A stretch of DNA of 64,000 bases from Azolla caroliniana (Eukaryota; Plantae; Polypodiophyta): assembly GCA_043228905.1 (NCBI GenBank), contig JBHGNT010000015.1, forward strand, positions 2,232,001 to 2,296,000. Direction: 5' to 3'. Shown here in pieces: positions 29,401 to 55,805 of the stretch (its first letter is position 1; every line of letters starts with the position of its first letter). The notes beneath the pieces were generated by a model. It did no database searches. It saw only the letters and a program-made list of their open reading frames with translations, and had not been told where the DNA came from. Both the position numbers and the translations under genes were made by a program.

Positions 29401-32267
29401 TTCGAGCATCCGAGTGTCGTGGAAATGCAATGCCAAGGCTTCCCAAGAGTTAGTCCACCACGAACTCTGAAGAAAGGTGATGACTAAGGAATTAAATGGA
29501 TCATCCTACTTTTAACACAGATAATTACCATAGCATGATGTGGATATATTTCTCAAGGAAAAGATTGAGGCTCCTGGAAGATTTAGAAAGCGGTATCAGG
29601 TGATGGAGAAGCAACAAGAACATAGGATAAAGTTTCTCCAGACTGATCAAGAAGGAGAATTTCTCTCCAGTCACTCTCGAAAGTATGCATATCAGAGGCA
29701 ATTTGTGGTGCCATGTACCCCACAACAAAATGGAACAGTGGAACATTGGCATTGAGCCTTAATGGAGATAGCCCAATGTATGCTCAAAGGAGCAGAATTG
29801 CATGATCATTACAAGGCAAAGGTGGTTAACACCACTGTTTACATATCCAACTGAAATGACATGAAAATCGTGAAGTAAATAGCTCCATTGGAATCTTATT
29901 GAATTATGATGATCTGCAGGGGTTCAGCTGTACATGTTGATTGAAGGATGCTTATTCAAGGAAGCTTCTTGGAATGCTGATTGAAGAAGAGCCAATGTGA
30001 ATAGGATGTGACAGCAAAAGCTGCACAGTTATCACAAAGAATCTCGTGATCCATGGATGTTCCAGTCATATTGAGATCCAAGCATACGAGAACATTATTT
30101 GGCTTGGAGAATGCATATTTTTATGCTCACTTGAAGAATTTTCATGGAAATTCAGAAGTCAGTTTAATACTTCTAATAGTTGTAATTTGAAGAAGTTTCT
30201 TACCACTATGAGTAGGCATGTCATGAATATGGAAATTTGAAAAAAAACATTGCCAAAAAGAAAATCATCTGAAGAAGATTCAATTGAACTTTTGTAGACA
30301 TAACAGTTGAACAAGAGATTTCTTAAGTCATTGGTGAACTGTAGAAATGCAGATCAAACTTCCAATTTAATAACATGAATGAAGCATTGAAATATATACA
30401 TGTACACACATGCATAAATAGATATATATAGAGAGATCATTAATTTAGTTATATGTCTGTCACATACCTGGAGCATGGTTAGCTGAGCTGAGAGTGTGGT
30501 TGCTTCGGTCTGAAGGGTCTGCACCTTGCGTTCAAGCTCTGCTATATATCGCATTTTCCGTTCTTTCGAGCGAGCTGCTGATTGCCGATTTGCTAAAATT
30601 CTGTCAAATTCTTCTATAAGAAATCATTGAAAAGAAAAACACAAAAAAATGACTGATATGCATTTTACAAAAAATGCATCAGCTTCATGGTTTTTTTTCT
30701 ATTTTATTTTTAAAATATCCATTCATAAATATACATAGAGATGTGATTCTCAAGTGATCAGGGAAGGGCTGAAAATGCCAAAAACGGCTTCCATCCTTGA
30801 TGGACATAAGTCAGCTTCATGGAGTTTGATGAGATAACCTTTAAAATGTTAAATTTATGTACATATTTACAAGGAATTTGTTAAAATCTCCACACAACCA
30901 GAAAAACACATTTTGGATGCCAAAACAGAGATCACATAAAAAATGAAGAAAGTGTTTGCTTCAACTTCAAATGGGACACATCTCAAACCAAAAGACATGA
31001 TGCATGCAAATTCAAGTTTTATATCAGAAAATAACCCAGAAAAATGACAGACTTCACCATTCCATCACTCGATATTTCACTTACAATGCATGAAACATGT
31101 GCTATTGTATAATGGAAAGACACAACCTCAAAATTTGAAAAAACAGCTGAATCATATGATATAACTCCCAATTTGTGAGAGATACAAATGCAAATTTTGT
31201 GGGATGAATAAAAAGGTATAAGCTAAAAATAATTATAACATCAGTAGTGTTATGGAAACTGCTTCTTGTATTACCATCTCATGCTTTTTACCTAATATGA
31301 ACATACTTTTCTTCTACCACCATCTCATGCTTTTACTAAATATAAATAAAAGATCTCACCTCTTTGCCCGTTTAGGATCAACCATGGCCAATTCAGCTAG
31401 TTTGCTGGCTCCCATGGATTTCTTCATTTCCAACGATTCCGAACATAGAAATTCTTGTTTGATAGGCAATGAACCATCCATAGAAAGACTATGTTGATGT
31501 CGGGGACGCCGTTCTCGAACCTCACTGTCTGTGCTAGGTGGTGGCATGCCATTGATAGACAAGCTTCTCATATGTTGCGCCGGAGGAGTAGAGGGAATGT
31601 CTGTGGGTAATTTTGATGCTGATGAAGATGAAGTCGGGGTGCAAGAGTTCAACTTGTTGTCGGAATCAAAATATATTGAGAAAAGCTCATACGCTTCATC
31701 GGAAAATGTGGAGGGTTCGAGCAAGTGGGGATCATTGTCTTGGAACGAGAAATTATCATCATCGTCGTAATCACAATCATACTCATGTTCATAATCATGG
31801 TGATCAACACTGACAACATTGGGCATATTGCGGAATGTGATCTCGGAGTGAGCACGGCGATGACGAGAAACACGGGCAGGGGTTACCTGGTTGTCTACGG
31901 ATGACGATGTGGCCCCTATGGATGAAGATGTGGCACCCTCTTGCATAGCAAAGTCCATGGAAACAGAGCCACTCCGCATAGAGCCATCTGAAGCAGTAGG
32001 GGAGTGTGAAACCGAGGCCGAGGGAGAGGGGTCTCTCTTCAAATTAGCAGTGGCGAAAGCATTTACTGTTGGGGAAGGGTAACCCACATGCTTAGCAGAG
32101 TGATGATGGGCATGTGATTGTGAAGGGTGTGGGGGGAATCCATTTCTACTGCTATTAACATGCCCTGTTCCCCCACCATTTTCTTTACTCGAATTGGGAT
32201 TCGCAGAAAACCCGCATTGTAAGCCTTCCACGAAAGCTTCATATCCGTGGCCACCGAAGCCTTCCAT
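26402..32267 (-). CDS. Group I bZIP transcription factor (VIP1/RF2a/RF2b-like), 422 aa, 4 exons
   Basis: Exons on -: 32267-31360, 30600-30468, 26990-26906, 26544-26402. GT-AG introns, phase-compatible. [81 protein letters not shown]. HxRxxS-type motifs HRRAHSE, HMRSLS and HQHSLSMD. Confidence 0.95.
27486..27880. repeat. Three diverged ~130-bp tandem units in bZIP intron 2
   Basis: TTTCAAGG.GCATTCT...TTTATTGAT.C...AAGATCAA.ATT recurs at about 27486, 27615 and 27753. Confidence 0.7.
29480..30300 (+). pseudogene. Highly degraded Copia integrase remnant in bZIP intron 2
   Basis: [32 protein letters not shown] resembles the Copia INT motif [19 protein letters not shown]. Boundaries are approximate. 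Confidence 0.65.
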
Positions 32268-32786
32268 GGATGAGGTGTATGTATGTAACAGAGAAGAAGG
32301 AAGGAAGGAAGGAACAAAAGAATTGGGCGAAATGGAGAATTAAATTCCTTCTTCTTTCAAGGCAGAGGCGAGTGAGAAACGAGAGAGATCTCCACTCTTA
32401 CTCTTCCTATTCCTCTTCTCTTTTCTCTTTTTCTTCTTCTCTTTCTCTTTCTCTGTCTATCTGTCTGTCACTATGTCAAAATGTTTGGTGTGACACAGAA
32501 GTCAAAAAGGAAGAAGAAGAAGAAGAAGAAGAAGAAGGAGAAGGAGAAGGAGAAGGAATTCAGATATTTTTTTCATAATACGATTGATTCCATCCATCAC
32601 AGAGACAAAGGGGCCGCGGATTCGGAGCTGCCCCACGGACCACGGTCCTCTTCTCTTCGGGGCGCCCGATCGGATTAGGACCCACACCATACATTCCGAG
32701 CTTCTATCGAACACACATGTCCATCTACTCATCCCTCGGACAATCATAACACTTGAATTCGCCGACGCGGAACTCTTTTCTCGCGT

Positions 32787-36190: not shown

Positions 36191-39100
36191 GGGACTTATA
36201 AATAGGGATCTATCAAACCTCCAAAAACCAAATTGGTTCAACGCCATGCTATAGCTCCCTATTGTCTACTCTTTGTACTCCATCTTAAATTGCAATACAA
36301 TACTTTCTTTTCAATTCTCTTTTTCTATCTTAACACTATATCTCTTTTTCTCTCTTTCTCTTGATAGATTGAGCCAATTTTTCATTTCTCCCTCTTCCAA
36401 CAAGTTCTCTTCTTTCTTCTCCTCTCCCCTCATAAGTTATGGAGTTCGTGAGCAAACAAGAATACATGCACTTTCTTTCTGAGCTCGACATGCTCACGAA
36501 TAAATTTGTGGCATTAGAGCATGAAAATCAAAGGCTATCGGGCGACCTACAACAAGTGAGTACCGAAAAAGCTCAACAATATGAAGAGTTATCACAACGG
36601 GTTCATCAACTCGAGGCTACTATATTGTCATTACGAGAACAAGTGTCGGGGGCACAAAACTCCTCTCGAGAACCAAAGATTAGCCTCCCTGCCAAGTTTG
36701 ATGGTACAAGTTCTTTATTTCGAGGCTTCTTGAATCAAGTCCATTTGGTTATTCAGTTACATCCCAATCGGTACCCAACTGATGCTGCTTGTGTGGGATT
36801 AGTGGGAACCTTGCTATGTGGTACGACATTAGCATGGTTTGCACCACTTCTCGAGAAGAAATCACTGATGTTGGAGGATTTTGAGGCATTTGTTAAGGAG
36901 TTTCAAGCTAGTTTTGAAGACACTGACATTCAAAGGCTCCGACAAGTTTCCACAAGTTTCGAAGACACCGTATGCTTCTGTAGTTGCAACGTTTCCACAA
37001 GTTTCCGGACCCATTTCAAGGGATGGCCCAACTTCGATGGAAATAGAGACAACATAATGTCGAGCACCTTTATTAGATGCTAAGAAGCAATGATATCAGG
37101 CGCACCGCCTATGCCTATATTGTGGCAGTCCAGGACATATAGCCGTGAATTGTCCACATAAACCTAGACGTCAAGTATACCAAGTAAGTGCACATGACAT
37201 CCCTACTTCGAGTTCCATTGTTACTTCTAGTAACATAAATAAGCCTAATAGTCCATGCCATGAGAATAGATTCGATGTCTTGAGTCAATTAGAGGATGTG
37301 TTAAACGAGTAAGTCCGACCAAAATAGGAGCCATTTGGTTGGACCATCCTAGATATGTAGAGGTAGTTCCTAGTTGTGGTTCCATTTCATCAAGTCAAGT
37401 GAGTAGAGTTTTTTCTGCACAAGTTGAGCTTACCACATCTACATGTCATCAAGTCCTAGCCTCTACCCTCCTAGATTCTGGAGCCAACTCTTGTTTCATG
37501 GATCGTGAATTTGCATTGTCACAAAACATCCTTTTGAATAAGCTCCCGAACCCAGTAGCCGTAGGAGTCATTGCTGGTTGTCCCATAACATCAAGTGATA
37601 TAGTGGAGGAGTCCGAGCCAATTCGTATAGTTCTTGGCGATTTGGCAAGCATAATCTCTTTCAACATTATTTGTAGTCCGGAACACCCAATAGTTCCAGG
37701 TCTCCCTTGGTTTGAACTCCATAACCTGAAGATTGATTGGATGAAGAGGACAATTGAGGAGACCCAGGAAGAAAGAACAAAGCTCACATCCCTCAACTCT
37801 ATGACATTTGATACTAGATCCCATAGGTTATCGACCATCTCTTTACGCCAGTTACGTGAGGAAGGGGGGACCGAGGATATGTTCGTATTCGCAATAGTAG
37901 CTACTTCATCATCCACCTTACATGAAGGGGAAATTAAACTACCAGAGAAATACAAAGAGTTCTCCGATGTTTTTGATAAGGTGAAGGTCAATACATTGCC
38001 AGAGCATTGGCCATACGATTGCCGTATTGACTTACAACCAGGGAAAGAACCTCCATGGGGCCCAATTTATAATCTCTCCCCTGTGGATCTAGAGACTTTG
38101 CGGGAATATATCGACGAGAATCTCGCAAATGGATTCATTCGACATTCTAGATTCTCTACTGGTGCATCTATCTTCTTCATTAAGAAAAAGAATGGGTATC
38201 TTCGGTTGGTCATGGATTATCGAGGGTTAAACAAAGTGACAATCCGGAATAGATATGCTCTACCGTTAATCCCGAATCTTTTGGAACGTCTTAGTGGAGC
38301 AAAATATTTCACGAAGTTGGACCTTCATGGTGTGTATAATCTAGTTCGGATTCGTCTGGGGGATGAATGGAAGACTGTTTTTCGCACTCGCTATGGACAT
38401 TTCGAGTAGATACTATGATGCCATTCGGTCTCACGAATGCACCTACAGTTTTCTAGCATATGATGAATGATATTTTTCGAGATTTTTTCGATATCTTCAC
38501 TATAGTTTACCTAGATGACATTTTGATCTACTCGAAGACCCAAGAGGAGCATGATGAACATATTCATTAGGTACTACGTCGACTACGAGAATATGGTCTC
38601 TACGCAAAATTAGAAAAGTGTAGTTTCGGCCAGAATCAAGTGGAATTTTTGGGGTACGTTGTATCATAAGATGGTATTTCTATGGACCCCATGAAGGTTC
38701 AAGCAATTTTAGAGTGGCAGACGCCTGTTGCAATGCGTGATGTGCAATGTTTTCTCGGGTTTGCAAACTTTTATCGGAAATTTATTAAAAATTATTCTAA
38801 GATCATGCTTCCGCTCACTCAAACTCACACACAAAAATCAACCATTCATATGGAGTTTCGATGCAGCTGAAGCATTTGAAAGTTTAAAACGAGCGTTTAC
38901 AACGACACCTATTTTAGCACATGTTGACCCAACAAAACGCTTCATCCTTGAAGTTGATGCAACCTATTTTTGCAATAGGAAGTGTCCTATCGCAGACTGG
39001 AGATGATGGAGAGCTACACTCTGTCACCTTTCATTCTCGAAAGTTTGAAGTTATAGAGATCAACTATGAGATCCATGACAAAGAACTTCTTGCAATTGTG

Positions 39101-40342
39101 GATTCTTTTCAACAATGGTGACATTTTCTAGAAGGCTCTTCTGAGTAGATCATTGTCTACAATGATCATAAGAACTTGACATATTTTCAAAATGCTCGAG
39201 TCTTGAGTCGGCGACAAGCTCGGTGGGCGCAATTTTTGACCCACTTCGACTTTGTAATCATATATCGCCCTAGGATGCAGCAAGGCAAAGCATATGCGCT
39301 TTCTCGACACTCTTATATGGAACTTCGTCCAGGGGAACCTGCGTTTGAGCATAAAAAACAAATCCTTTTGGGTCCTAATCGCCTACGATTAATGGTAGTT
39401 AATGCCATAACAACACTTGAAGATTCCACTCTTCTTGATTCCATTCGAGATCATATGGTCACTAATGAATTTGCTAAGGATGTTTTGGATCATATTGTCC
39501 CAGATCGTGCTTCTTGTTTGTAGTCGAAAAACCCTCGTAATGATTATCGTCAGTTCTATTGGCATGGTGGTTTTCTATTTCGACAAAACCTATTGTATGT
39601 TCTTGATGGTCCCCCGTGACTACAAGTTTTACAACACTGCCATGACTCACAAATGGCTGGACATTTTGGAGTACGCAAAACTCTAGAATTAATTTCTTGA
39701 CAATATTGGTGGCCTCGCCTTCCTCATTTTGTTGAGGAGTATGTTCGCAACTGTGATAGATGTTGTTGATCAAAGAGTCCTCGACACCGATCCTATGGCT
39801 TACTACAACCACTTCCCATTCTGGAAAATCCTTGGAAGTCTATATCCTTGGATTTCATTACCGATCTCCTAGTTTCAAAAGGTTATGATGCAATTCTCAC
39901 AGTGGTTGATCGACTCACCAAAATGGCACATTTCTTGCCATGTACGAAGTCTATTACTAATCAAGAGGCAGTCGATTTAGTTATGCGGGAGGTATTTAAG
40001 CACCATGGTCTTCTAGATGATATTATTAGTGATCAGGGTCCACAATTTATCTCAAAGTTTTGGAGGCACATACTTAAACTTCTCCAAATTTCGGCTAAGC
40101 TTTCTTCGGGCTATCATCTTGAGACTAATGGCCAAACATAGCGTACCAACCAGACATTGGAGCAATATCTTCGTTGTTTCATCAATTACCAACAAGATGA
40201 TTGGGTTGATTTTTCGCACGTGACTGAATTTGCTTACAACAACTCGGTCCATTCTTCTATGGGATATTCCCCATTTTTTGCAAATACGGGCCCTCATCCT
40301 CGATGGACAATGAATGTGTGTCCAGAAGTGTCGACCAACCGT

Positions 40343-42007
40343 TGTCGTGATGTGACGTGCTCGAGAGTGGGAAAAACCGGCGAAAGGGGGGGGTCAAAAT
40401 GTGCATGTGCAATGTGTATGCACACAAAGGCGATTAGTTGTGCATATGCAAAATAAAAGGGAAAAGAAAGGGTGGGAAGGATGTATAGAAGCTCGTGCAA
40501 AAAGTAAGAGAGAGGAGAGATAAAAGGTAGAGGGGAGACAGACTAAGAATTTATACAGATAGAATTATATATTATATAAGAGAGAGTTAATGGGCTAGTG
40601 CATAGTCACATTGACTTCTAGTTAAAGGTGCACGGTTCAAATCTAGTCTTATAGTGTAGTGTGATTTAAGGAATTTTATTCCATTTTGCATTAAAGACGA
40701 AATTAGTGACCCCCATTCCTTTTTTCCTATAAAAGGAGGTTGAGGGGGGCTCATTAGGAAATGCCGTTTGGGAGGAGGAGACTATCGCCATTTTTCCTTC
40801 GGAGCTCTTCATCTTCTTCTTCACCACTTCTCTTCATCTCATACCCCTTCATCCCCTCATCGCCACGTGCTCGTCTTCTTTGCGTCGACACTTGAAGTGC
40901 TTGTGAGCCCAAGCTTCGTTGGTTCGATGTTGGTTTGCCCCGTTCGTTGTTGCGAGCCCGTGTGCTCGCCGTTTGGGTGGTCGTGGTTCGTTGGGGTTGG
41001 CATTTTGGTGGTGCTCGTGTGTTCATCTTCGCCGTGTTCGGATTTGCTCTTGTCTCTAAGGGCATTTACTATTTATCTTTTGATTGAGCTTGTGGTTAAC
41101 TATAAGTTCCCATTGTAATCAAACCCTATTTTATAAAGGGTCCTCTTGCGTTGGAATCAAACACGTATTTATTTCTTTGGCCGATATCATTCGTGTTTCT
41201 TTCTTTGTTCGTGTCTTCCTTGTACGTTTGTCCATCTTGTGACGAGGGAGCGTTTCGGGCGTGCCCATGCACCTCTCCTCCTCATAAAGACGTACGAGCA
41301 TTTGTGTGCGTGTTTGTGTCTTCCTTGTATGTTCGGCCGTCTTGTGACGAGGGAGCATTTCGGGCGTGCCCATGCACCTCTCCTCCTCATAAAGGCGTAC
41401 GAGCATTTTGTGCGTGTGTTTGTGTCTTCCTTGTATGTTTGGTCGTCTTGTGACGAGGGAGCGTTGGGGCTTGCCCATGCACCTCTCCTCCTCATAAAGG
41501 CGTACGAGCATTTTGTGCGTGTGTTTTTGTCTTCCTTGTACGTTCAGTCGTCTCGTGACGAGGGAGCGTTCGGGCTTGCCCATGCACCTCTCCTCCTCAT
41601 AAAGGCGTACGAGCATTTGTGCGTGTGTTTTGTGTCTTCCTCGTACGTTCGACGTCTTGTGATGAGGGAGCGTTCGGGCGTGCCCATGCACCTCTCCTCC
41701 TCATAAAGACATATGGGCATTCGTGTTTGTGTTATCGTCCCCTTGTGCGTTCATCTTGCGTGCTCATCTTGCTTGTACCCGTTTGATCACTTGGCTCGTG
41801 CGGTGATCTCGAAAGGTCGACGAGTCGTGATCAACGAAAGCCACCGGCCTCACAAAACAAAGGGCAACGAGCCCTTGCTTGGGAAGGGGTCGGGAAGTAG
41901 TATTGTCGTAAAGCAAACCTCGAGTCTTCTCTATCCCTTGAGTACTCCCAAGTCCAAGACCCCTGTGGTCCCGCCTAAGTAACACACGCGTGCGAAACTT
42001 CGCGACA
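40343..42007 (+). mobile_element. Solo LTR (1665 bp) of a non-chromovirus Gypsy, inserted in the integrase of the Tcn1-like element
   Basis: Termini TGTCGTGA..TCGCGACA resemble those of the 55806 LTR. Flanks CCGT and TCGT (4-bp TSD with one transition). The host frame STNR|AAEDRL rejoins when it is removed. TATA at ~40728. Confidence 0.85.
41190..41710. repeat. Five ~105-bp tandem units inside the solo LTR
   Basis: GACGAGGGAGC..GCCCATGCACCTCTCCTCCTCATAAAG.CGTACGAGCATTT recurs at ~105-bp spacing. Confidence 0.93.
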
Positions 42008-42395
42008 TCGTGCTGCTGAGGATCGTCTTAGTGGCCTCCAATAAATTCACACTACCATTCTTCACAATTTGCATGATGCTCAAGTTACACACAAGAGGCT
42101 TGCGGATCGTCATCGCCTAGATTCCTCCAAAAGATTCCGTGTTGGGGATCATGTATGGCTTCTCCAACAAAACATCAAGACCACTCGGCCTTGCGGTAAA
42201 TTGGATTACCAACGTTTTGACCCATACATGATCACTATTAAGATAAGTGACGTTGTATTTTGTCTTGGCCTCCCTCCGCACATATGTCTTCATCCGATGT
42301 TTCATGTATCCCTTTTGGAACCTTACGTCACAAGTTCAATTCCGGGTCGTCTTATAACTCCCCCACCACCTGTTGAGTTCTTGGAAGGACCCGAA

Positions 42396-43985
42396 AACCA
42401 TAACTCCTCCCTAGAGGATGCAATCTGCACTTGTGAGTGCCCAATTTGTCAATCTAGCTTGCAAGAGCATTGTAAATAATTAGAGCATGTTATCTCTTCC
42501 ATGAGTGGTCTTTTAGATTCAATATTGTGTCTGAGAGAATCTGAGGCTATCTTCCACAGTCATAAATGTGTCATGGGTTTAAGTCAAGATTGTGGCCCTA
42601 GTAGATTGAAGTGGTGTCCAAAAGAGTTGAGTAGTGAAATTTTAATCTTTATCAAGTTCTTTGAGGTTGTGGACACCAATTTCGAAGGAAAGGTGTGTAA
42701 AAGAAAGGATCTAGTTAGGAAGTCACTTAAACCAAGGGATTTGGCGTCTCTATTTGTAGTATATCTAGGAAAGTTCATTAAACACAACTTCATTTATTCA
42801 TGGCAAGCCCATCAGTTTAAGACTTGCATATCTGATTTTCCAAATGATTTAGTAGTCTCAATAGTAGATTTCGTAGAGAATTATACTTTCAAGCAGTAGA
42901 ATGAAATTCAATCCATGCATTGGTGTCAATGCAAGTAACCATTTTTGTGCACATAACATATTTTCGAGTTTTAGGTGATGTTACGAAAGTAGTTCATTTT
43001 TTTATTTCTGATGATAAGAAGCATGATACCTTGTTTGCCCAACACTGTTTTACAGTACATTGGAAATGGTTAATTAAGTCAACGTTTGAAGCATACTCAA
43101 CATTGCGTCTGGTCTGATGGAGTTGCGTCACAATTCAAGGCTAGATGTCCATTTTATTTTGTTGGTAGGTATCCTTCTGTAATAGTTTTGGAGATGAGAT
43201 GGAATTTTTTTGGGTCTGGCCATGGTAAAGGTGAACATGATGGATCAGGTGCACTTATAAAGCGGGCACTTACCCATGAACAACTAAAGGTGGATGGTGT
43301 GCATATGAATTGTGCAACACATATAGTCGAAATTTTAACAACTAATATGTCAATGAGTGCAACTGGTGTTTATTCCTCGCAGGTCCGAGATGTCAAACGT
43401 GAATTCTCGAATTGCGATCTCTCCATGTGGTTGGGGGTTATTCTAGGTTGGATGGTCAATGTATTGCGGTTTGAGAATTAACTTGTTTTTGCTTCCATTG
43501 TGTGCAGGGAAATTGGAGGTTTTGTTTAATAGGGCATATATTTAAAATTGGGAGTACCATACATTGAATGATAAGGACTAAGCGGATGGAGAAACAGAAA
43601 ACAATGTTGACTTCACATATCAGGGGCGTGGAGATACTCTGAGTAATTTCGTTGTAAATGCAGAAGAAGACAAATCAGAGGGTGTTGATTTCTATATATT
43701 GAAGTGCAAGGTTTGTAAACAATGTGCAACATAGAATATTGTAGATGCTTGGGGAAATTTTGTATCTGCAGGGACATTCTACATTGAAGGTATTTGTTAT
43801 GCAAGACTAGATGATTATGATTATGTGTATAGGCATTTTGAAGACAAACCAGTAGCATACATGTACTTTCATTTGGTCAGGTGCATCAACATCTCGATGT
43901 CACAATACAATAGCTGCTCAGGTTTATACATAGTTAGTGCTAATGTGTATGAATGTATTTACAATAGTATGCCATGGAATTTGTA
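42396..43985 (+). pseudogene. Sola2-like DDD transposase (degenerate, 5'-truncated)
   Basis: Motifs in order: C.CP.C, DFVENYTFKQ*NEIQSMHW..QVT, FISDDKKHD, WSDGVASQFK, WNFFGSGHGKGEHDGSGALIKR, and downstream TCFCFHC..W..C.N. These match the Sola2 signature (DF.ENY / SDG..Q.K / HGK..DG.G). No TIRs found. Confidence 0.8.
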
Positions 43986-45427
43986 GCTACAAGGAGATCA
44001 TACCAGTTTTCTCATAAAGTGGACAAAGTAGTTGTATTGCAAAAAAGCAGTTTAATAAAATCATTTGGGAGACTGTCTTCTTTCTGGTATACAGTTTTCT
44101 TTCTGTTCTTGTTTGTTAATAAAATCATTTGGGAGTCTTCTTTTTTATATACAGTCTTGTTTTTGTTCTTCTTTCTTAATAAAATCATGTTTGTTTAATA
44201 AAAAATAGTTTAATAAAATTGTGTGTCTTTTTTATATACAGTCTTCTTTGTGTTCTTCTATCTTAAAGAAAAGTTTAATAAAATCGTTTGAGAGTCTACT
44301 TTATGTTCTTGTTTGTTAATAAAATCGGCTTTGTTAAATGTGTATTGATTGTCAGTTTTACTTATTGCAACTTTTGGTTTTAGTCTGTTCAATGTGCATA
44401 ATGACAATTATACTGTCTAGACTAAATTTTGGCAATGGTGTTTTTACTCTCAAGTGAACCATGTACAAGTTCAAACAGTTTGTCATTCTGAGAACAACAA
44501 GCAACATGAAATCAGAAATCAATGACATATTTTAAAATTACACAGTAGATGATTTACTCAAAACAAGCGATTTAATTCTTCATTGATTAATCTGTCATCA
44601 AATTACATATTTATAATACACCATTGGCAATGTCTACAAAGCGCCTTTAAATAGCTAAGCTCTTGTTGGTCAGTGGAACTTCTCTACATATGTGATCTGA
44701 ATACTGAGCTCGGTATGGTGTCCACAACCATTTAGTTAGTTGGCAGCTCAATGTTTTTACCAAGTAGTTATCAGGCATTTTGTCAGGTACAATGAGGCAA
44801 CATCTGCGAAGGTTGTAGTAATGCTGTAAATGTTTTGTATCCACAATCAATGTATTGTCGGCATTATATTGGGGCTAGGTATGCCAAAAATAAAAAAGTC
44901 TTTTGAATCTTGCAATATCCTGCTATTCACATCTTTCTCGTGTCCACTAACCATTGAAGTGTTGTTGCCACTTTGGGAAGAATCTTTCTACACACTTCCA
45001 CACATTTGAACGTGGTTTTTCACTCAAAATAAACAAATCTTGCGTCAGCAATGGCTTGCACGATAGCCACATCTTGCGTTAGCTTTTCAAGTGCAATGGG
45101 ATCTGGTGGGACATCATCATCAGTTGGGCTTGGTGGGGGCGAATCAAGGTTTTGGGATTCGAAGAAATGTTGCATCAAGTGTTAAAAAACACTGTTGTTA
45201 TGAACCTCAGATTTACATGTTGTTTCGAATATTTCATGGCTTTTCACAACGTTGCCTAATTCAGTACAATCTTCCAAAAGAATAGGGTGGAATTGATATG
45301 AAGGAGATGTGATAGTAGGACTCTTACTTTTAGTCACGTTGCCAGCTATCTCCTCATCGGTTGCCGCGTCATCGGCACTAGACACCTCATACAACCTCCT
45401 TAATCCACGAGATTCTACAACACATTG

Positions 45428-46933
45428 TTAGCTAATTAGTGGCTTCACTTGTGTTTTTCTATGATCTTAGCTGAATACTAAACATGGTAGCTAATTAGCT
45501 ACATGGTAGGTAATTAGCGGCCACTCTTGATACTACTCAATACTACTACATCCTAGCTAATTAGCTGCTAATGAGCTAAGTAAGCTAATTAGCTATTCTT
45601 CCTAACTATGGTTGTGCCTAATTAGCTACCACTTTTGATACTACCATACTAAAGTATAATAGCTAATTAGCTCCTAGACTATAGATTGACAGTAGCTAAT
45701 TAGCCACATCTTAGCTAATTAGCTATTCTACTTTAGTATGGTAGTAGCTAAATAACTATTCTTCTTAACTATGGCAATAGTTAATTAGCTAGCACTCATG
45801 ATACTGCTTAGCTAATTAACTACATCTTAGCTAATTAGTTGCTAGACTATAGGTTGGTAGTAGCTAATTAGCAAGATCTTAGCTAATTAGCTATTCTACT
45901 TTAGTATGGCAGTAGCTAATTAGCTATTCTACTTTAGTATGGTAGTGACTAATTAGCTACATCTTAGCTAAATAGCTATTCTTCTTAACTATGGCAATAG
46001 CCAATTAGATATCACTCTTGATACTGCTTAGGTAAATAGCTACATCTTAGCTAAATAGCTATTCTTCTTAACTATGACAATAGCTAATTAGATATCACTC
46101 TTGATACTGCTTAGGTAAATAACTACATCTTAGCTAAATAACTATTCTTCTTAACTATGGCAGTAACTAATTAGCCATCACTCTTGATATTGCTTAGCTA
46201 AATAACTATTCTTCTTAACTATGGCAGTAACTAATTAGCTATCACTTTTGATACTGCTTCACTAATTAGCTACATCTTAGCTAATTAGGTGCTAGACTAT
46301 AGGTTGGCAGTAGCTAATTAGCTACATCATAGCTAATTAGCTATTCTACTTAAATATGGTAGTAGGTAATTAGCTACATTGTAGCTAATTAGCTACTACA
46401 CTATAGGCTAGCAACAACTAATTAGCTATTCTAGTTAAATAGGCTAACAACAACTAATTGGCTACTACACTATAGGCTAGCAACAACTAATTAGCTATTC
46501 TACTTAAGTATGGTAGTAGCTAATTAGCTAAGTGGTAGCTAATTAGCTACTCCACTATAGGCCGACAATAGCTAAATAGCTACCACTTAGCTAATTAGCT
46601 ATTCTTTTTAAGTATTGCAATAGCTAATTAGCTATTGCACTATAGTTTGGCAGTAGTTAATTAGCTATTCTACTTAAGTATGGAGCTAATTAGCTACTAC
46701 ACTATAGGTTGACAGTAGCTAATTAGTTACATCTTAGCTAATTAGCTGATAGACTATAGCTAATTAGCTATTGCAAGACCATAGATTTATAGTAGCTAAT
46801 TAGCTACATCTCGGCTAATTAGCAATACCTAGTTTGTAGCTAATTAACTAATACGCTATTGAACCATAACAACTAAATAGCTACCACACTTTATACGGCT
46901 TTGCTAATTAGCTAAGATGTAACTAATTAGCTA
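45428..46933. repeat. Array of ~50 copies of the 14-bp palindrome TAGCTAATTAGCTA with recurring 5-, 17- and 19-bp spacers
   Basis: Counted by eye, including degenerate copies. Spacers include CATCT, CACTCTTGATACTGCT, TTCTACTTTAGTATGGTAG, TTCTTCTTAACTATGGCAA and CTAGACTATAGGTTGGTAG. An 83-bp higher-order repeat lies at ~45961-46210. Confidence 0.93.
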
Positions 46934-47293
46934 CTACACTATAGAGACAAGCAACAAATTTACCTGTCAGTTTTCTCCACTCATCTGGGAGAGTTGTATT
47001 GCAATCCCCCAAACAGACTATAGCAATGCGACATGCATATTGAAAACAAACGATATGGTATGTGTGCTGACATGGTCCTAGGTGTACCAACAAAGTAGTA
47101 GTTTTGTCCTCTACGCTTAAACCGCAAGCGATGCAACATGCTTGAACAGTCAATATATCGTTACTTGGTTCTCCGTCGTTTGGTAAGGAAGCAAGAATGT
47201 TCAGGTCCAATTCTTGTTTGCTCTTTACCATCCCCTCCACAAAATGTAGCTGCTTCTTAAGGCAGCTAACTACCTGTTCTTGACGGGAGTATT

Positions 47294-50200
47294 TGTAATA
47301 ACCAAGATCATTAATCCTAAAATAAAGATATAAATGACACAATCATACTGAAAATACGCGTTACCACCCATCCACCCTACCCTCGCTCCAGAGTCGACAA
47401 GGCAGACGAGGAATCCCGTTCTGTCCCATACCAGCCAAGATCTCCACGTTAGGACCTTGGTAGATGACTAGTCCACATCAAAGAGAGCTTCGTCGGAACC
47501 ACTCATGGGGCCCCCCCTTAACCAAGGAGAGTCTCCCCTATTTATAAGACCTAGGCCATGTAATGACATCTACATGACCAATCATGTGCGGGGTACCCTA
47601 TGACACACATTAGGTTAGTCCAATAAAGCCGACGACTCAGATATTACAGTATGATAGCCCCCTAATAAGCATGTCTAAACCAATGAACATTACATACTCC
47701 CCCCCTCCATTTACTTGCACTCTTGCAATGGGAAGTTAGGAAAATGTTTGCATAATGTCTCTTCGATTTCCCATTTGATGTCTTCTTCCAATCTATCCTT
47801 CCACTTAACCTTGTAGTGATGAACAACCTTTGACCTTAGGTTTCTAGACCTATGGTCGAGGATTTTCTCAGGTTCATGTGGAGCAAAATGATCATCCTCT
47901 AATGTCGATAAATTAGATGGTGTTACAACATTATCATCATAACCAATCACCTCCTTTAATCGACCCGTGTGGAATACGAGATGAACCATCACATTGGAAG
48001 GCAAATCCAAATGATAAGCATTGGGACCTATACATTTTAAAACTTTATATGGTCCACAATACCTTGGGGCTAATTTTGCACACGGTCCTGTTCTCAATGT
48101 TTCTAAGTCCTTAGGAACCCGTAGAAAAACTTGTTGTCCTACATGAAATTCCCTTGGTTTTCTATCATGATTAGCATAAAAGACATTTCTGTCCTGTGCC
48201 ATCTTAAGGTTTTCTTCTGCCAATTTACGTGCTTCAAGTATATTAGACAGAAAATCCTTTGTACTATCCAAAGTATGTGAATCAAACGAAACATCAATAG
48301 GAGGACGTGGCATATAACCATACATCAACATGAATAGATTGTATTTTGTTGATGTATGCTTAGCGTTGTTGTAGGCAAATTCCACCATAGGAAGGTAAGT
48401 CTCCCATAATGAGGGTTTTTGCACTTCATATGCTCTCAACATATCCTCTAATATCTGATTCACTCTCTCAGTTTGCCCATCTGACTGAGGATGATCAGAA
48501 GAACTGAGACTCAAGGTTATTTGAAGTTTCTGCATAACTTCTGACCAAAATGTACTTGTAAACTTGGAGTCTCAATCACTTACAATCTCCATCGGTAGAC
48601 CATATAAGCTATAAAGATGTTTAATAAACTTAATAGCCAATTGTTTTGTGGTAATTGTGGATTTTGTTGGAATGAACCTTGCCATCTTGGTAAGCCGATC
48701 AACAACTACCCAAATGACATTGTTTCCCTCAATGGAACGAGGTAATCCAACTATGAAATCCATGGATATACTTTGCCAATTTTCAGCTACAATAAGCCAG
48801 CTTTTTTCTGTCACTCAGCCTTAATGATCTAACATTGTGGACATCGAATGACATAGGACTCTACCTTAGGTTCCATTTTTGGCCAGAAAAACCTAGCTTT
48901 AATCAAACCTAATGTTCTTTGCACACTTGGATGTCCAACAGAAGGGCATCATGACATTCATACACAATTTTATTCTTGATGTCCTTTATGTGTGGTATGC
49001 AAACCTTACTATTGCGGTACAATAACCCATTTGTAACATGGTAAAGGTTCTTCAGGGTAGATGTGGTTCCATGATCGACGTCAATACCTGTTTCAGCTCT
49101 CTTCCAGAACTTCGAAAATGTTTTGTCATCAAGGTATTTTTGTTTACCCCGGATCAAATCATATAAGTCGTCGTTAAATTCCATGAAACTTAGGGCATTG
49201 ATTTTTGGAATACAACTCAGGGTATTTGCAATGGAATTCAAAGTCTTGCATCAACTCCGCCCATCTTGCCTTTCGACCCTCAAAATTCTTTTGAGAGAGG
49301 AAGTATTTTAAGGCTTTGTGATCCATTAAAATAGTAAATTTACTACCATATGAATAATGTCGCCATTTCTTTAAGGTGTAAATAATAGCAAATAATTCTT
49401 TTTCTTGAACCGACTAATTTCTTTGGGCTGAATCCAATTTTTTGCTTTCAAAAGCAATCGGTCTCCCAATTTGAAATAATGCAGCACCAATAGCATAATC
49501 ACTTGCATCCGTCTCAACTTTGGATGTTTGATTAGGATTAGTTATAGCTAAAGTAGGTGCATTCACAATTAATGACTTGAACTTATTGAAGGTTTCTTCA
49601 AGAGAGGCATTCCACTGAATAGGTTTAGTGGACTTTCTTGTAATGCCCTTCAATAGGTCCGTAAATGGTGTTGTGTAGGATGAATAGTTTTGAAGAGATT
49701 TTCTTAGGAATCCAATAAATCCTAAGAATGATCATAACTCCTTAACATTTGAAGGTCGTGGCCAATTTAATACTGCTTCTATCTTAGATTTATCAATAGA
49801 CACACCCAACCTAGATATGCGGTGTCCAAGATACGTAATTTCCTTTTGAAAGAAATCACATTTAGATAGTTTAGCAAATAGCTTGTATTCACGAAGCTTG
49901 TCCAAAACTATTCTAACATGACACACACGATCCTCAAATGTATTACTATATACCATGATGTCATCAAGGAATACGACCACGAAATCACCAAGCTGATCTC
50001 TGAATATATCATTCATCAATTGCTGGAATGTGGCTGGAGCATTAGTCAACCCAAATGGTAGAACCCGAAACTCATAATGACCATAACGAGTTCGGAAAGC
50101 TGTTTTGGAAACATCTTCTTCCGAAACCCTGATTTGATGATAGCCAGTGAGCAAGTCTATCTTAGTAAAATATCTTGCACTTTGGAGTCTATCTATCAAG

Positions 50201-53200
50201 TTATCAGAACGAGCAAAGGGTAGGAATTGCGAATGGTGAGTTTATTCAAACCTTTGTAATTCACACACATTCGCCAAGTTTCATCCTTCTTCTTGGCTAA
50301 GATGATAGGAGCTCCCCATGGTGATTTACTGTACCGGATGTGTCCCATCCTCAAGTACTCCTTGATTTGTCGGGCAATTTCATCCTCTTCGGTTCGACTC
50401 AACCGATATGGGGGTATGCTCACCGGTTTAGCGCTTAAAAGGAGGTAGTCCTTGAGGTAACTTATCCGGGAATATCTCCTTAAAATTCGACAAGATGTCA
50501 CGTAGAGCATCTTTCTCAAAATCTTCCAATGAACTCTTATTTACAAATTGATACAGAAGATCATTGGGCTCTAATATACATGCATAAAAGTGTGCATTGA
50601 CGTTTCGATCATAAGCATAAAGATGATTAACAGACATTAAATTGTTTATCGCAATCCCATGAATAAAAACTTGTTGGTTATTATTTCCTTCAAAAGAAAT
50701 AGAATGATTTGGCCAATTGATATAAAGCCTATGTCTATTATAAAACCATATGTAACCAAGAACTACATCTACTGTTCGTAAACGCATTACATGAAAAGTC
50801 AACTTTTCAATGTAGTTATTACACCATGTGCAATGAATGAATGCCTTTGGATATGGCCTCCTGCAATAAGGACTTTGTAGTCGTGGTCACTTTTGGTTGT
50901 TTTTATTCGTAACATCTGCACCATATTAGAGTTAAGAAAATTATGAGTGCTACCACAGTCAAATAGTATAGTTACACTTTGATTGTGGATAGTCCCATAA
51001 GTTTTAAGTAAATCGTGTGGTCCAAGAATATTTTTTTGTAATGCAATAGAACTAACGGAATTCAAATAATTCAAGAACATACTTGGATTATTGGAAGTTG
51101 ATGGCTTTCTTTGCGGATTGTTGGGGTTACCGCTCTCCTTTCTCCGCCTACACTCGTTGGCTTTATGCCTAGGCTTCTTACAGAAGTTGCAGATTATTAC
51201 CCACCTTTTCGCATTGTCGCTTGACCTATCAGACAAGGTTGGTATCTACGTTTACCGCTTTCTCCTTCCAACTCTTTTGGTTGGTAACAAGCTTTTGTGT
51301 CAAATAGAATGCGGGCCCGTTCCATCGCTTCTCCCAAAGTCTTGGGTTGATGAGCGTGGATCTCATAATGAAAATCTTTATTATGGAAACTATTAATATA
51401 TAATCCTATCAGTATTTCCTCATTAGATGCTGACAAAAGTCCATGCTTCGTTATCATGTCGCAGAAATACTGATTGAATTGGTCAATAGTCTTGGCCTTA
51501 TCTGACAAGTGACACATATCTTGTATCACTTGAGAAGTCGTCTTGGGGCGGACAAATTCCATCCTGAGAGTCTTTTCAAATGCCTCCCACATTCCGGGTT
51601 TTCTATCCAACCGCTCCCACCATGAGTTTGCGGCACCGATCATCTCACGAACTGCCATATCGATATTTTCAGAATCATTCTGAATATTCTTGAGGCGAAA
51701 GTGAGCATTCCATCGGTTTATCCAACTGCTCACAAACTCGTGGTTGAGTTGCTTATCCCTTCCCGAGAACCGTTGAGGAGTAAATGAAGGCTTCTTTGTA
51801 TTGCTTGATGTGGAAGCGTGTGCCTTTAACTCCAAAATTTGTTGTTGAAGGTTTTCAAACTTATGCCTATTGGCATCAAGAAGCCCTTCAAGTTTGGAGG
51901 AGAACGCAGTTGTGACCATTGTCATTGACTTGACAATATCATCTTGCGTTTTGCGGAAATCATCCCTCGTGACAAATTGGATATCGTCGTTAATATCCTT
52001 GGCACGGACCGAAGATATTGGTCGGTCATCCTCATCTCGCATAGGTGAAATTGGATGACCTTGACGGGTGGGAGATGCGGGATGTGTCAAAAAACTACGA
52101 TGATTGGGAGATGTGTGATGTGCAGAATTACGAGAGGAGGAAGCCATGAAAATTAAGGAGAGTTGAGAGAGGAAAGAAATAACTATACTAAAGTCTAAAG
52201 TACTAAAGTGTATTATAAAAGACTTTAGGATTTAGATGAGGAAATAAAGAGTGATAGATAATGAGAGAGTGGGAGTACTTATATACCCAAATTTCTTAAG
52301 TCGGTGAGTAAAACAAAATCCCCCTAGATATGTCCAATTTAGGCATTTATCCCTTTTTTATCAATAGGAATTTCTAGATTAGACATTAGGAGCAATACCT
52401 TCCCTTTTAAGAAGTCGGTGAGTACTAGTCGGTGGCCACCTTTCTAAGGTTACTTTCTTGAATGCTTCCAAACTAGGAAATTCTCCTTTTTTAGTTATGA
52501 AAATTTTCTAGTTTAGATTTTAGAGATAAGCATCCCCCTTTTGGAAGTCGGTGGGGATAGTAGGTGACTTCCTTGAGAATCACTGTAGTTTGTACTAACT
52601 AAACTATGATGATGATCATCCCAATAATGATGATCTCTTCACTCATCATCCCAATATTCCTCTTGAGAATTATTGTACTAACCAAGTAGTGATGATGGTC
52701 ATCCCAATAATGATGATCTATTCACTCATCATATCCTTATTCCTCCCATCCATCTCATACTCACGATCCCTCTCAACATTGATTTCTTCTCTTCACTCTC
52801 TCCTTCGCATCGATTAATAAATGATGATGATCTTATCCATATAATTATATTATCATCTTTTTAATCAACTATACAATCATCCATATAATCAACCCATTAA
52901 CGCTAATGATCTATAGATTATCCATCCATCATCATGTAATTAACACGCACCCGTGGTGATGGATGATTGTGGCCATTCAATTAAACCTTAGGGTCAATGA
53001 TTAATTGATTATCGACAATCAACGATCATCACCCTAGTTCTATCAGCCAATTTTAATTAAATTGATTATTAAGGATCATTATCCATATATATGATATTCA
53101 TCAATTATTTCATTGAAAATTCAACAATCAAGCATCACCTATAGTATATTAGGTGGCCAACCTCTAGAGATACGATCTCCACATGTAAGGCCGCCTCATG

Positions 53201-54019
53201 GGCATAGCCATTAGATCAAGAGGGGTATACAAAACACATAGTAATAATAACAATAATTTTATAAAACTTTTTTAACCTCTTGATTTATTTTTTAATTTTT
53301 TTTGTGCATCAATGAATCGAACTCATAGCCTTTACTTTTAAGGTTATTGCATGAATATACTAACCAACCCATCACACAAATTTTGTTGTGTTATGGTCAA
53401 TGTCAAAACCTTAATATATTCATTATACATAACCCCAATATACCACAAATCAACATATCTCCCCTGAACGGAATCTCTGTGGCGTTTTTGACACATCCCC
53501 AATCCATCATTTAACATACATTAGTACATAAAAAAAATATAACATATTTTCCCGTACTAAAGCACATAACGTGAATCCAATCAAACATTATTTTTTTAGG
53601 ATTAAAACCGCTCTGATACCATATGTAATAACCAAGATCATTAATCCTAAAATAAAGATATAAATGACACAATCATATTGAAAATACGCGTTACCAACCA
53701 TCCGTCCCCGTGCCAGAGTCAACAACGCGGATGAGGAATCCCGATCTGTCCCATACCAGCCAGGATCTCCACGTTAGGACCTTGGTAGATAACAAGTCCA
53801 CATCAAAGAGAGCTTCGTCTGAACCACTCATGGCCCCCCCCCTTAACCAAGGAGAGTCTCCCCTATTTATAGGACCTAGGCCATGTAATGACATCTACCT
53901 GACCAATCATGTGTGGGGTACCCTATGACACACATTAAGTCAGTCCAATAAAGCTGATGACTCAAATATTACAGTATGATAACCCCTAAATAAGCATGTC
54001 TAAACCCATGGACATTATA
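47294..54019 (-). mobile_element. Full-length but degenerate Ty3/gypsy chromovirus (tRNA-iMet primed, with chromodomain)
   Basis: LTRs at 47294-47694 and 53624-54019 (visibly diverged). TSD GTATT on both sides. PBS at 53610-53621, PPT GGAGGGGGGGAGTA at 47695-47708. Gag 52147-51197, CCHC knuckle and protease LFDCGSTHNF, RT FLDD, RNase H ETDASDYAIG, INT DFIVGLP, chromodomain EPEKILDHR..YKVKWK. Many frameshifts. Confidence 0.93.
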
Positions 54020-54556
54020 GTATTGTTCCTAGAACGCAACCGAGAAATTTCCGATTGATCATTCCTTATAGAGGAAGATAGAACAACAAGATACAAGAAT
54101 CATTAACTTACTTGGAGGTTCTCCAAATTGTAATCAATGACAATATTTACACCTAGAAGGTCTAGGTTCATTGAAAGAATCTGGATCTCTGTCCGTAGTT
54201 GTATTTTTCGATGAAGATCCAACGGCTCGTCAATTTCGAGCTCATGTTGAGCAACCTATTCCAGATAATGCCACACTAAGCACATTTTCATGTATAACTT
54301 ATTTATAACATGTTACATACTAGCAAAACAATAACTACCTGAATCTTATTTCTGATTGTTGTCATAGCCAAAGTGACTTTTCTCTCCATCGCAGCAACCA
54401 ATGTTGCTCTCTCTAAATCAGACTTTGCTGCCTCTAATGTCTCACAGGCTTCATGGACATTTTTCAGCTTATAGCTAATCAATGTCTCACTTGTATCATC
54501 TGACAGGAACTATGCGAAATAATCTTCAGCCACAACCGGGACTTAGATCACTTCGA

Positions 54557-54789
54557 TGATAATCAAACACAGAAAGATAAGAAATGAAAGTAGGTACACA
54601 AACAGAAGAGAATGCACAGGATGTTAACATGGAAAACCCTAAACGGGAAAAACCACGGGAGTCCCCAAACTCCAACTATCACTATGTAGAGAAGAATACA
54701 ACAGATGAACACAAAGGCCATGACCTCTTGCTCTCAATCTTCGCCTGGCGGCGGTTACAACAAAGACTCACACTGTCTCTCTCTCTCCC
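54557..54789 (-). mobile_element. Partial Copia-type LTR
   Basis: Contains the GGAAAACCCT....GGGAAAAACCACGG motif common in plant Copia LTRs. Truncated against the LINE. Confidence 0.45.
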
Positions 54790-55805
54790 GAATTTATGAG
54801 AAGGTTATATGCTGTGTGCGCATGAGAGATAAACTTTTAGATTTTTTCAAAAGCACTATTGGTGTTAAGCAAGGATGCCCACTCTCACCAACACTATTTG
54901 GTCTATGCATTGATGAATTGGAAGAAATGGTTGCCAAGTTTGCAAAGGAAGAATGTGTTGAAGAAGTTGCCATTGGGAATGTTGTGATTATGCTTTTGCT
55001 ATATGCAGATGATGTAGTGCTTTTTGCAAATACTTTAGGAGATGCGCAAAAGCTTATGAAGGCATTGGAAAATTTTTGCATGCATACTAAATTAAGTGTC
55101 AATAGCTCTAAAACAAAGATTATGCTTGTGAAGAGCCAAAAAAGAGATAAACCATGCATTATGTACAACAATGAGCCACTTGAATGTGTGGAAAGCTTCA
55201 AATATCTTGGCCTTGAAGTTCCTTCAAATCATAGATGGAATGAATGTGCTACACGCCGCTTAGAGGCGGGCAAGCGAGCATACTATGCATTTGAGAACAC
55301 ATGCAATCTTGGAGATATTAAGTGTTGGGTCCTCAAGAAATATCTTTTCGACACTTTGGTGACACTGGTTCTTCTCTATGGGGTGGAAGTATGGGGCGGT
55401 AGCATCCCTAAATCTATGTGGAAAGAGTTTGAAAATGTCCAAAAGCATTTTCTTACCAAGTTTCTACAAGTTAAGAAACAAACGCCCTACACCCTCCTCG
55501 TCCTTGAGATGGGATCGCTTCCCATTGAGATCATGGCCATGGAAAGGGTTGTTGAATACATGCTTAAGGTTCAAAAATGTCCCTCACATCGACTTCCTAG
55601 AATTGCGTGGGAAGCAAGCAAAAAGATCCAAAAGACGCATAAAAGCAAAATTTTGTGTTCCAGTTGGATGCAAGATATAGAAAAATGGTTTGGTAGATGG
55701 GATGCGAGACACTTGCTTCATGATGCATCATTAGATTCCTCTGTAAATGAGGCATTTTTGTAAAGCCAATGTGTCATGACATGGGACAAATGTGGAGGCT
55801 CACGC
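54790..55805 (+). mobile_element. Non-LTR retrotransposon (LINE, RTE/RTEX-like) RT fragment
   Basis: GVKQGCPLSPTLF, LLYADD, NSSKTKIM, FKYLG, LLYGVEVWG. The 5' end is truncated and the 3' end is interrupted by the LTR at 55806. Confidence 0.88.

Follow-up and report, generated by a model that had tools for sequence, protein, structure and literature searches.

A decayed Sola2-type transposon of Azolla caroliniana facing a spliced gene for a predicted RING-like protein

The stretch of DNA analysed here (the window; 64,000 nucleotides of Azolla caroliniana, positions 2,232,001 to 2,296,000 of contig JBHGNT010000015.1 in assembly GCA_043228905.1) contains the remains of a Sola2-type DNA transposon. 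Its transposase, on the plus strand, faces a spliced gene for a RING-like finger on the minus strand (Table 1), and an earlier note written from the sequence had read the two genes as parts of a single element. The transposase showed the motifs DFVENY (D at 42867), EIQSMHW, ISDDKKHD, WSDG..QFK (D at 43116) and FFGSGHGKGEHDG (D at 43239), with all three D of the triad kept. Their order is that of the Repbase Sola2 alignment as printed in Additional file 10 of PMC3627910 (compared by eye), which reads DF[AS]ENY, QS.HW, Q.T.H, ISDD..HD, SDG...QFK and HGK..CDG.G and has a DDD triad; the motif set and triad thus bear out the Sola2-type transposase of the earlier note. The superfamily call was made from this motif set, in a comparison with Sola2 sequences and not with Sola1 or Sola3.

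The copy in the window is dead and decayed, as had been supposed. Several stops and frameshifts interrupt the transposase reading frame, and the matching exon-2 open reading frame of L001, a related metagenome locus, is open. Nucleotide similarity to L001 starts only at 42397, abutting the end of a Gypsy integrase, so that the 5' part of the window transposase is missing; it was lost most simply by deletion. Both ends of the copy are cut off. In the Gypsy element on the transposase side (36436-42395), an insert containing five 105-bp repeats (41206-41733) interrupts the integrase, and the element is truncated at the transposase.

The minus-strand exons were joined after removal in silico of an inserted long terminal repeat (LTR) retrotransposon (47294-54019), whose LTRs differ at 30 of 396 positions (7.6%). 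For exons 54554-54339, 54297-54112, 54028-54025 plus 47293-46964, and 45414-45040, every junction has a GT donor and an AG acceptor, and together they give a single frame of 370 codons with four stops. In this respect the earlier note was right: a multi-exon gene with a C3H2C3 RING-like finger can be read on the minus strand once the LTR element is taken out, and the predicted 46964/45414 splice junction has its GT-AG sites and is in frame. The join of the first two exons is uncertain because the first intron measures only 41 nt. A contig touching the NIF region described below (from a run tentatively taken for RNA) and unspliced sequence in an unclassified run count neither as expression nor as splicing evidence. 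About 185 helical residues are followed by the RING-like finger and then by an acidic exon, whose relatives run on into a basic tail that is missing in the window. Nested insertions truncate the gene's 5' side near 54556, with LTR-like DNA from about 54557 and a long interspersed nuclear element (LINE) fragment at 54690-55763. Variants were listed for three of the window's stops in this gene, and in other copies each of the three reads as a sense codon.

Table 1. Features of the Sola2-type element and of the DNA inserted into it (positions in the window)
Feature	Position	Strand	Remarks
Sola2-type DDD transposase, 3' two-thirds of exon 2	42397..43986	+	83-87% (nucleotide) to L001
Spacer between convergent 3' ends	43987..44646	.	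~60-bp tandem repeat 44042-44328
C-terminal two-thirds of FCP1/SCP (NIF, PF03031)-like domain, N-terminal part deleted	44647..45039	-	matches to L005 and to the hidden Markov model of L005+L007
Acidic/low-complexity exon behind RING, phase-1 acceptor	45040..45414	-	basic tail deleted in window copy
Intron with palindromic AGCTAATTAGCT arrays	45415..46963	-	same motif in L001 transposase intron
RING exon, main part, frame open	46964..47293	-	RING-H2-like finger ~47001-47135
Inserted Gypsy-type LTR retrotransposon, foreign to Sola2 element	47294..54019	-	GTATT duplication either side
First bases of RING exon	54025..54028	-	AG acceptor just upstream
Exon B, helical/coiled-coil-like by inspection, one stop	54112..54297	-	
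Exon A, coiled-coil-like by inspection	54339..54555	-	upstream side cut by nested insertions

The ligands of the finger are spaced C-x2-C, C-x-H-x2-H-x2-C and C-x3-C, a C3H2C3 pattern with a non-canonical last pair (C-x3-C rather than C-x2-C). This pattern occurred once in the window and in none of 30 shuffles. The Pfam search proposed in the earlier note did match RING families, zf-rbx1 (E = 0.008, 16.8 bits against a curated cut-off of 31) and zf-RING_2 (11.9 against 27.3), but both below cut-off; the RING domains of relatives score 16-24 bits. All ten atlas matches listed for the window RING are RING-type or unnamed clusters. None of 41 candidates proved to be a longer homologue of the RING exon, which is weak evidence.

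On the minus strand, coding sequence continues past the acidic exon: a frame resembling the FCP1/SCP (NIF) domain extends over 45039-44647. Its part 45039-44701 matched the NIF frame of L005 with E = 5e-6 and a hidden Markov model built from L005 and L007 only with E = 8e-9. In Pfam the remnant reached E = 0.016 and 15.3 bits, below the cut-off of 21.8; the domains of L005 (55.3 bits) and L007 (27.1 bits) are both above it. In these two loci, which belong to the window's subclade, the domain lies in an open frame convergent to the transposase. The best sequence and fold matches of the domain are FCP/SCP phosphatases (SCP1-3, CTDNEP1, UBLCP1, Tim50); the closest by sequence is UBLCP1 and the closest by fold SCP/CTDNEP1, with fold matches of E 3e-6 to 1e-4 from a low-confidence model (mean pLDDT 50). 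The catalytic motif of FCP/SCP phosphatases is DxDx(T/V) (also given in PMC4436666). At its position L005 has DLNGLL and L007 has DLNGVL; DxDx(T/V) is absent, and the position is deleted in the window.

Three contigs of run X10, from other copies, part from the window at 45039 and go on with residues that match the missing portion of NIF. Together with the lack of the basic tail behind the acidic exon, the X10 contigs indicate that a deletion fused the acidic exon to the NIF remnant in the window. A reading of 45040-44780 in the frame of the acidic exon was rejected, the coding frame there being that of NIF. The donor of the RING exon is in phase 1, and candidate phase-1 acceptors precede both the acidic exon (window, L003, L005, L012) and the NIF frame (L005, L007). 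Because the RING donor and the NIF acceptor agree in phase, a RING-NIF splice form is possible in the window's clade; the NIF frame of L005 may also be a separate third gene.

Between the two 3' ends the earlier note had placed AATAAA-rich repeats at about 44050-44290. The hexamers are present, seven of them at 44054-44318, but all on the plus strand and inside the ~60-bp tandem repeat, and they are not conserved poly(A) signals since L004 reads AATAGA where the window repeat has AATAAA. Tandem arrays with TTAATAAAAT, as in this spacer repeat, are also found downstream of 11915 in L046/L048, where no second gene was detected.

The intron behind the RING exon links the two genes in another way. 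TAGCTAATTAGC matched 78 times in this intron, not at all in the rest of the window, and 57 times in the transposase intron of L001. When the top 10-mers of 15 transposase introns were searched on the gene-2 sides, the density on the side of the same family was 47.6 per kb for L001 against the window, 7.7 for L002, 4.5 for L006 and 1.3 for L005, and at most 0.6 at other loci.

In all likelihood the second gene belongs to the Sola2 element. Four runs from three organisms gave 6404, 6209, 4943 and 1697 contigs on 41900-47400, mostly less than 99% identical to the window, with contig depth (which is not copy number) present in 30 of 30 bins and of similar order on the exons of both genes. So many divergent contigs, found in all four runs, exclude a single-copy gene, one of the outcomes that the earlier note had named as fatal to its proposal. 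None of those outcomes was generally observed, although four of 12 testable groups are without the second gene. Diverged contigs tile the transposase end, the spacer and the NIF end, including the joint at 44186-44332; no single piece spans both genes. The RING gene might still belong to the host, or be an unrelated repeat, and lie beside the transposase by chance, as could happen in a window that is a nest of insertions and in which no terminal inverted repeats (TIRs) were found. Yet its multi-copy coverage, the motif that its intron shares with the transposase intron and the diverged contigs that bridge every step between the genes make such a coincidence very improbable.

The same layout recurs in relatives. 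The best 80 of 187 metagenome loci formed 43 groups at 90% identity, 12 of which have at least 3 kb after the transposase (for L077/78/80 the end of the match was taken as the transposase end). Seven of these 12 (L011, L012, L042, L068/69, L071, L074-76 and L077/78/80) possess a convergent RING on the minus strand downstream. The first RING profile was built from six of the seven, so L074-76 is an independent match (E ~1e-9). One further group, L014/20, has a convergent gene with the N-terminal domain of L011.

These relatives lie on several branches of the transposase tree. A protein search with P0005 gave 135 proteins at E <= 1e-10, and the named homologues among the 120 listed come from Ceratodon, Calypogeia, Cryptomeria, Taxus and Klebsormidium and, more distantly, from Labeo and Holothuria; none of those listed is named from an angiosperm. 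The two closest homologues are clusters of 34 and 36 protein variants. The statement of the earlier note that Sola2 is described mainly from animals and protists needs widening: animal homologues with Sola2-type motifs (E < 1e-20) do exist, and named proteins from mosses, liverworts, gymnosperms and charophytes include Sola2-type transposases as well. Sola is moreover a recorded repeat class in Physcomitrella (as Sola1), Azolla and Ceratopteris, according to PMC9033089, PMC10741241, PMC6786969 and PMC6890710. No related locus was found in viral contigs or prokaryote genomes. In a quick IQ-TREE search with 36 representative rows (the window and 35 of the 80 loci) and 20 proteins, the plant-type rows formed one clade (SH-aLRT 99), the window fell into a 13-row subclade without a named member (SH-aLRT 99), and the RING-bearing groups stood on separate branches. 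The search being quick and the tree midpoint-rooted, no order of events is read from it.

Some relatives have structures of their own. Under P0155 and P0154 there are a Sola2-type transposase fused to a Ulp1/C48 protease (PF02902; P0155) and a Labeo protein named 'Sentrin-specific protease 2' with Sola2 transposase motifs. The transposase of L016-L023 and L066 is split by an extra repeat-filled gap within the catalytic region, where P0006 has a similar in-frame insertion. L050, in a branch near gymnosperm proteins, has a RING gene on the strand of the transposase, a possible independent capture or inversion.

In relatives the second gene has been under purifying selection. Between L014 and L020 omega is 0.25 in its N-terminal domain and 0.33 in its coiled coil (dS 0.36-0.42), and 0.09 in the transposase (dS 0.35); the matching dS and low omega indicate that both genes diverged together under selection. 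RING pairs of relatives have pN of 0.22-0.32 against pS of 0.72-0.76, and long open frames of the second gene are found in diverged relatives. It has to be asked here whether RING and NIF are captured host fragments, passive cargo of the Pack type without a role. Lineages do differ in cargo (RING, NIF or none), and the window RING shows no specific homology to that of the relatives. The selection and long frames just described, the sense codons found elsewhere at window stops, and a position and strand that are alike in seven groups argue against such passive carriage, which we consider improbable.

The N-terminal domain comprises about 110 residues in the moss-like relatives L011, L014/20 and L068/69. 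It had no match in Pfam and no credible sequence match in PDB (best E 0.27), and its structure model (pLDDT 47, best Z 4.2) is too poor for fold assignment. This domain, the NIF-like domain and the motif arrays common to the transposase intron and the gene-2 side had been missed in the earlier note.

What the second protein might do is suggested by VANC, whose motifs form tandem arrays in the introns of VANDAL elements. By this analogy it would be the element's own counter-silencing factor, a predicted ubiquitin ligase acting on its own DNA, a reading to which we give a probability of roughly 0.45. The N-terminal domain of the relatives would bind the motif arrays of its family, as VANC does in VANDAL elements, and the coiled coil would dimerise the protein. 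Through its RING the protein would bring in a host E2, and silencing proteins or chromatin at the element would become ubiquitinated. Splicing in the window's clade may put an FCP/SCP-like exon, which has a phase-1 acceptor, behind the RING in place of the acidic exon; this module probably binds a phosphoprotein and has weak or no catalysis, DLNG replacing DxDxT. DNA binding, E2 recruitment, the target and the RING-NIF isoform are the steps that we infer.

The same evidence can be read in other ways. The second protein could serve transposition as a cofactor, in the manner of MURB or of the Harbinger DNA-binding protein: it would bind the element and the transposase and help to target or assemble the transpososome, its RING offering a surface for interaction. 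The convergent two-gene layout, the co-divergence with the transposase, the long helical region and basic tail of the relatives and the MURA-MURB binding reported in PMC12973397 would all suit a cofactor. On the other hand, it would not be obligatory, since four of 12 groups lack a second gene, and the zinc-ligand pattern is kept and resembles that of active E3s; a cofactor role is conceivable and rather unlikely. Alternatively the RING might be an active E3 that ubiquitinates the transposase encoded by the same element and so keeps copy number down or removes the transpososome once integration is complete. Its E3-like profile (the best matches of the relatives' RING profile are the RING E3 ligases RNF4, RNF13 and Ark2C) is consistent with this, as is the transposase-Ulp1 fusion P0155, which links the superfamily to ubiquitin-like modification. 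A self-limiting ligase would leave the N-terminal domain and the family-specific motif arrays unexplained, and we think it unlikely.

A number of findings weigh against the counter-silencing interpretation. The C-x3-C ending and the Pfam scores below cut-off leave E2 binding of the predicted RING in doubt. Against the RING profile of the relatives, the window RING reaches 14.6 bits, less than the unrelated RNF13 (22 bits), with an hhalign probability of 32.6%; given this weak score, the case for common descent with the relatives' RING is made from exon phase, the C-x3/4-C ending, position and strand. Transposase and RING occur together on no further contig of the window's clade, and several of the RING-bearing groups may share one host species. 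Four groups (L029, L036/37, L046/48 and L063/64) have no second gene, L014/L020 have no detectable RING, and the RING gene of L050, with its coiled coil, lies on the transposase strand (L050:3658-4917; 1.4 kb downstream available). The N-terminal domain is absent from the window, and its weak atlas lead to Transposase_32/ATHILA clusters scores 0.88-0.89, under the 0.9 from which a match counts as more than a lead. Among the 15 introns, those of L003, L007 and the moss-like loci showed no motif sharing with the gene-2 side, and the motif arrays could be sites of the transposase. Finally, no pair of TIRs with target site duplications (TSDs) enclosed both genes in any locus examined, RING-bearing relatives included. 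The two-gene convergent element of the earlier note is supported, the genes being multi-copy and alike in layout in seven of 12 testable groups; the second gene is not universal, and shared TIRs and TSDs around both were not found.

As regards termini, the inverted-repeat counts of L011 and L014 were within shuffled controls, and a TIR candidate of L075/L076 was rejected because it falls inside the transposase gene. A doubtful pair is present at L063:269-9914, where a 16-bp inverted repeat with AAAT on both sides surrounds a Sola2 transposase and a fragment of a GMC-oxidoreductase gene, without a RING. It may be a Pack-type Sola2 or a chance pair; its flanks are the sole 4-bp AT-rich duplication among the loci examined.

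Second genes in Sola elements are not new in themselves. The Fanzor1-carrying Sola2 elements DFa-1/2/3 and PPa-1/4/5, as given in Additional files 10-11 of PMC3627910, likewise have a second gene at the 3' side with cargo varying by family. In these amoebozoan elements the cargo described there is TnpB-like, and in the window type it consists of a coiled coil and a RING, to which an FCP/SCP-like domain may be added. Compared with the Sola2 entries of the Repbase alignment reproduced in that paper, the window type forms a clade of green plants in which the transposase has two exons and a spliced RING gene converges on it. Sola1-1_Ec32 of Ectocarpus is likewise a large Sola with an opposite-strand accessory gene and a proposed epigenetic self-modification (PMC12477816), but it is a Sola1 and has ParB and a DNA methyltransferase and no RING.

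Closer in proposed function are the VANDAL elements of Arabidopsis, Mutator-like elements (MULEs) in which, in the account of PMC5735166, an accessory gene is likewise combined with family-specific short motifs in tandem arrays in introns. They differ in having a MULE transposase and in VANC itself, for which that account gives DUF1985/DUF287, two domains absent from the Pfam results for the scanned pieces of gene 2. VANC was shown there to bind its motifs and to bring about demethylation, steps that in the window type would be predictions. MURB of MuDR and the PMD/PP7 modules, as presented in PMC12973397 and PMC7156037, offer further parallels: an accessory protein in a plant TIR element, and the combination of a transposon-derived domain with a phosphatase domain. 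They belong to another superfamily, and PP7 as described there is a PPP metallophosphatase, in contrast to the HAD-type FCP/SCP fold of the second gene. Relative to known phosphatases and E3s, DLNG[LV]L replaces DxDx(T/V) and the RING ends in C-x3/4-C, and both lie beside a transposase. No published Sola2 with a RING or FCP/SCP accessory gene was found in full-text searches of the literature; Repbase, Dfam, Bao et al. 2009 and the supplements of PMC12973397, which may record a second open reading frame, lay outside the search. Thus Sola elements with second genes were already known (Fanzor1 in Sola2, ParB-methyltransferase in Sola1), and a RING/NIF accessory gene was not met in the parts of the literature covered.

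Elsewhere in the window a Copia element (11220-16678) with two identical 634-bp LTRs and an unbroken frame of 1379 codons is a very recent insertion; a MATE transporter gene (17041-19843) adjoins it. Two host-like frames, 23555-24742 and 31356-32339, had no Pfam match at E <= 0.01. One encodes a coiled-coil protein, and the other ends in DPKRAKR and is presumably bZIP-like.

A wider picture of the green-plant Sola2 lineage, which we regard as doubtful, would be that throughout its moss-like and other non-flowering hosts it retained a ubiquitin ligase of its own, built from a DNA-binding domain, a coiled coil and a RING. The ligase would dock on co-evolving intron arrays and lift silencing, and the window's clade would add an FCP/SCP pseudophosphatase by an alternative last exon, with RNA polymerase II in its phosphorylated form or some other phosphoprotein as its binding partner. 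Functions are known for few accessory proteins of plant transposons, and the cases in the papers cited above are from MULEs of angiosperms. With its exchangeable modules and matching motif arrays, a RING accessory gene conserved in the Sola2 elements of non-flowering plants would make it possible to test directly whether transposons turn the ubiquitin system against silencing. Such a test is feasible because apparently intact relatives exist (L011 and L014, and the transposase exons of L001) and the moss Ceratodon purpureus has an annotated transposase related to these. Among the RING and FCP1-like gene models of non-flowering plant genomes, some may be transposon cargo. If the wider picture outlined above is true, plants would have evolved sequence-specific anti-silencing systems twice independently, the second working through ubiquitin.

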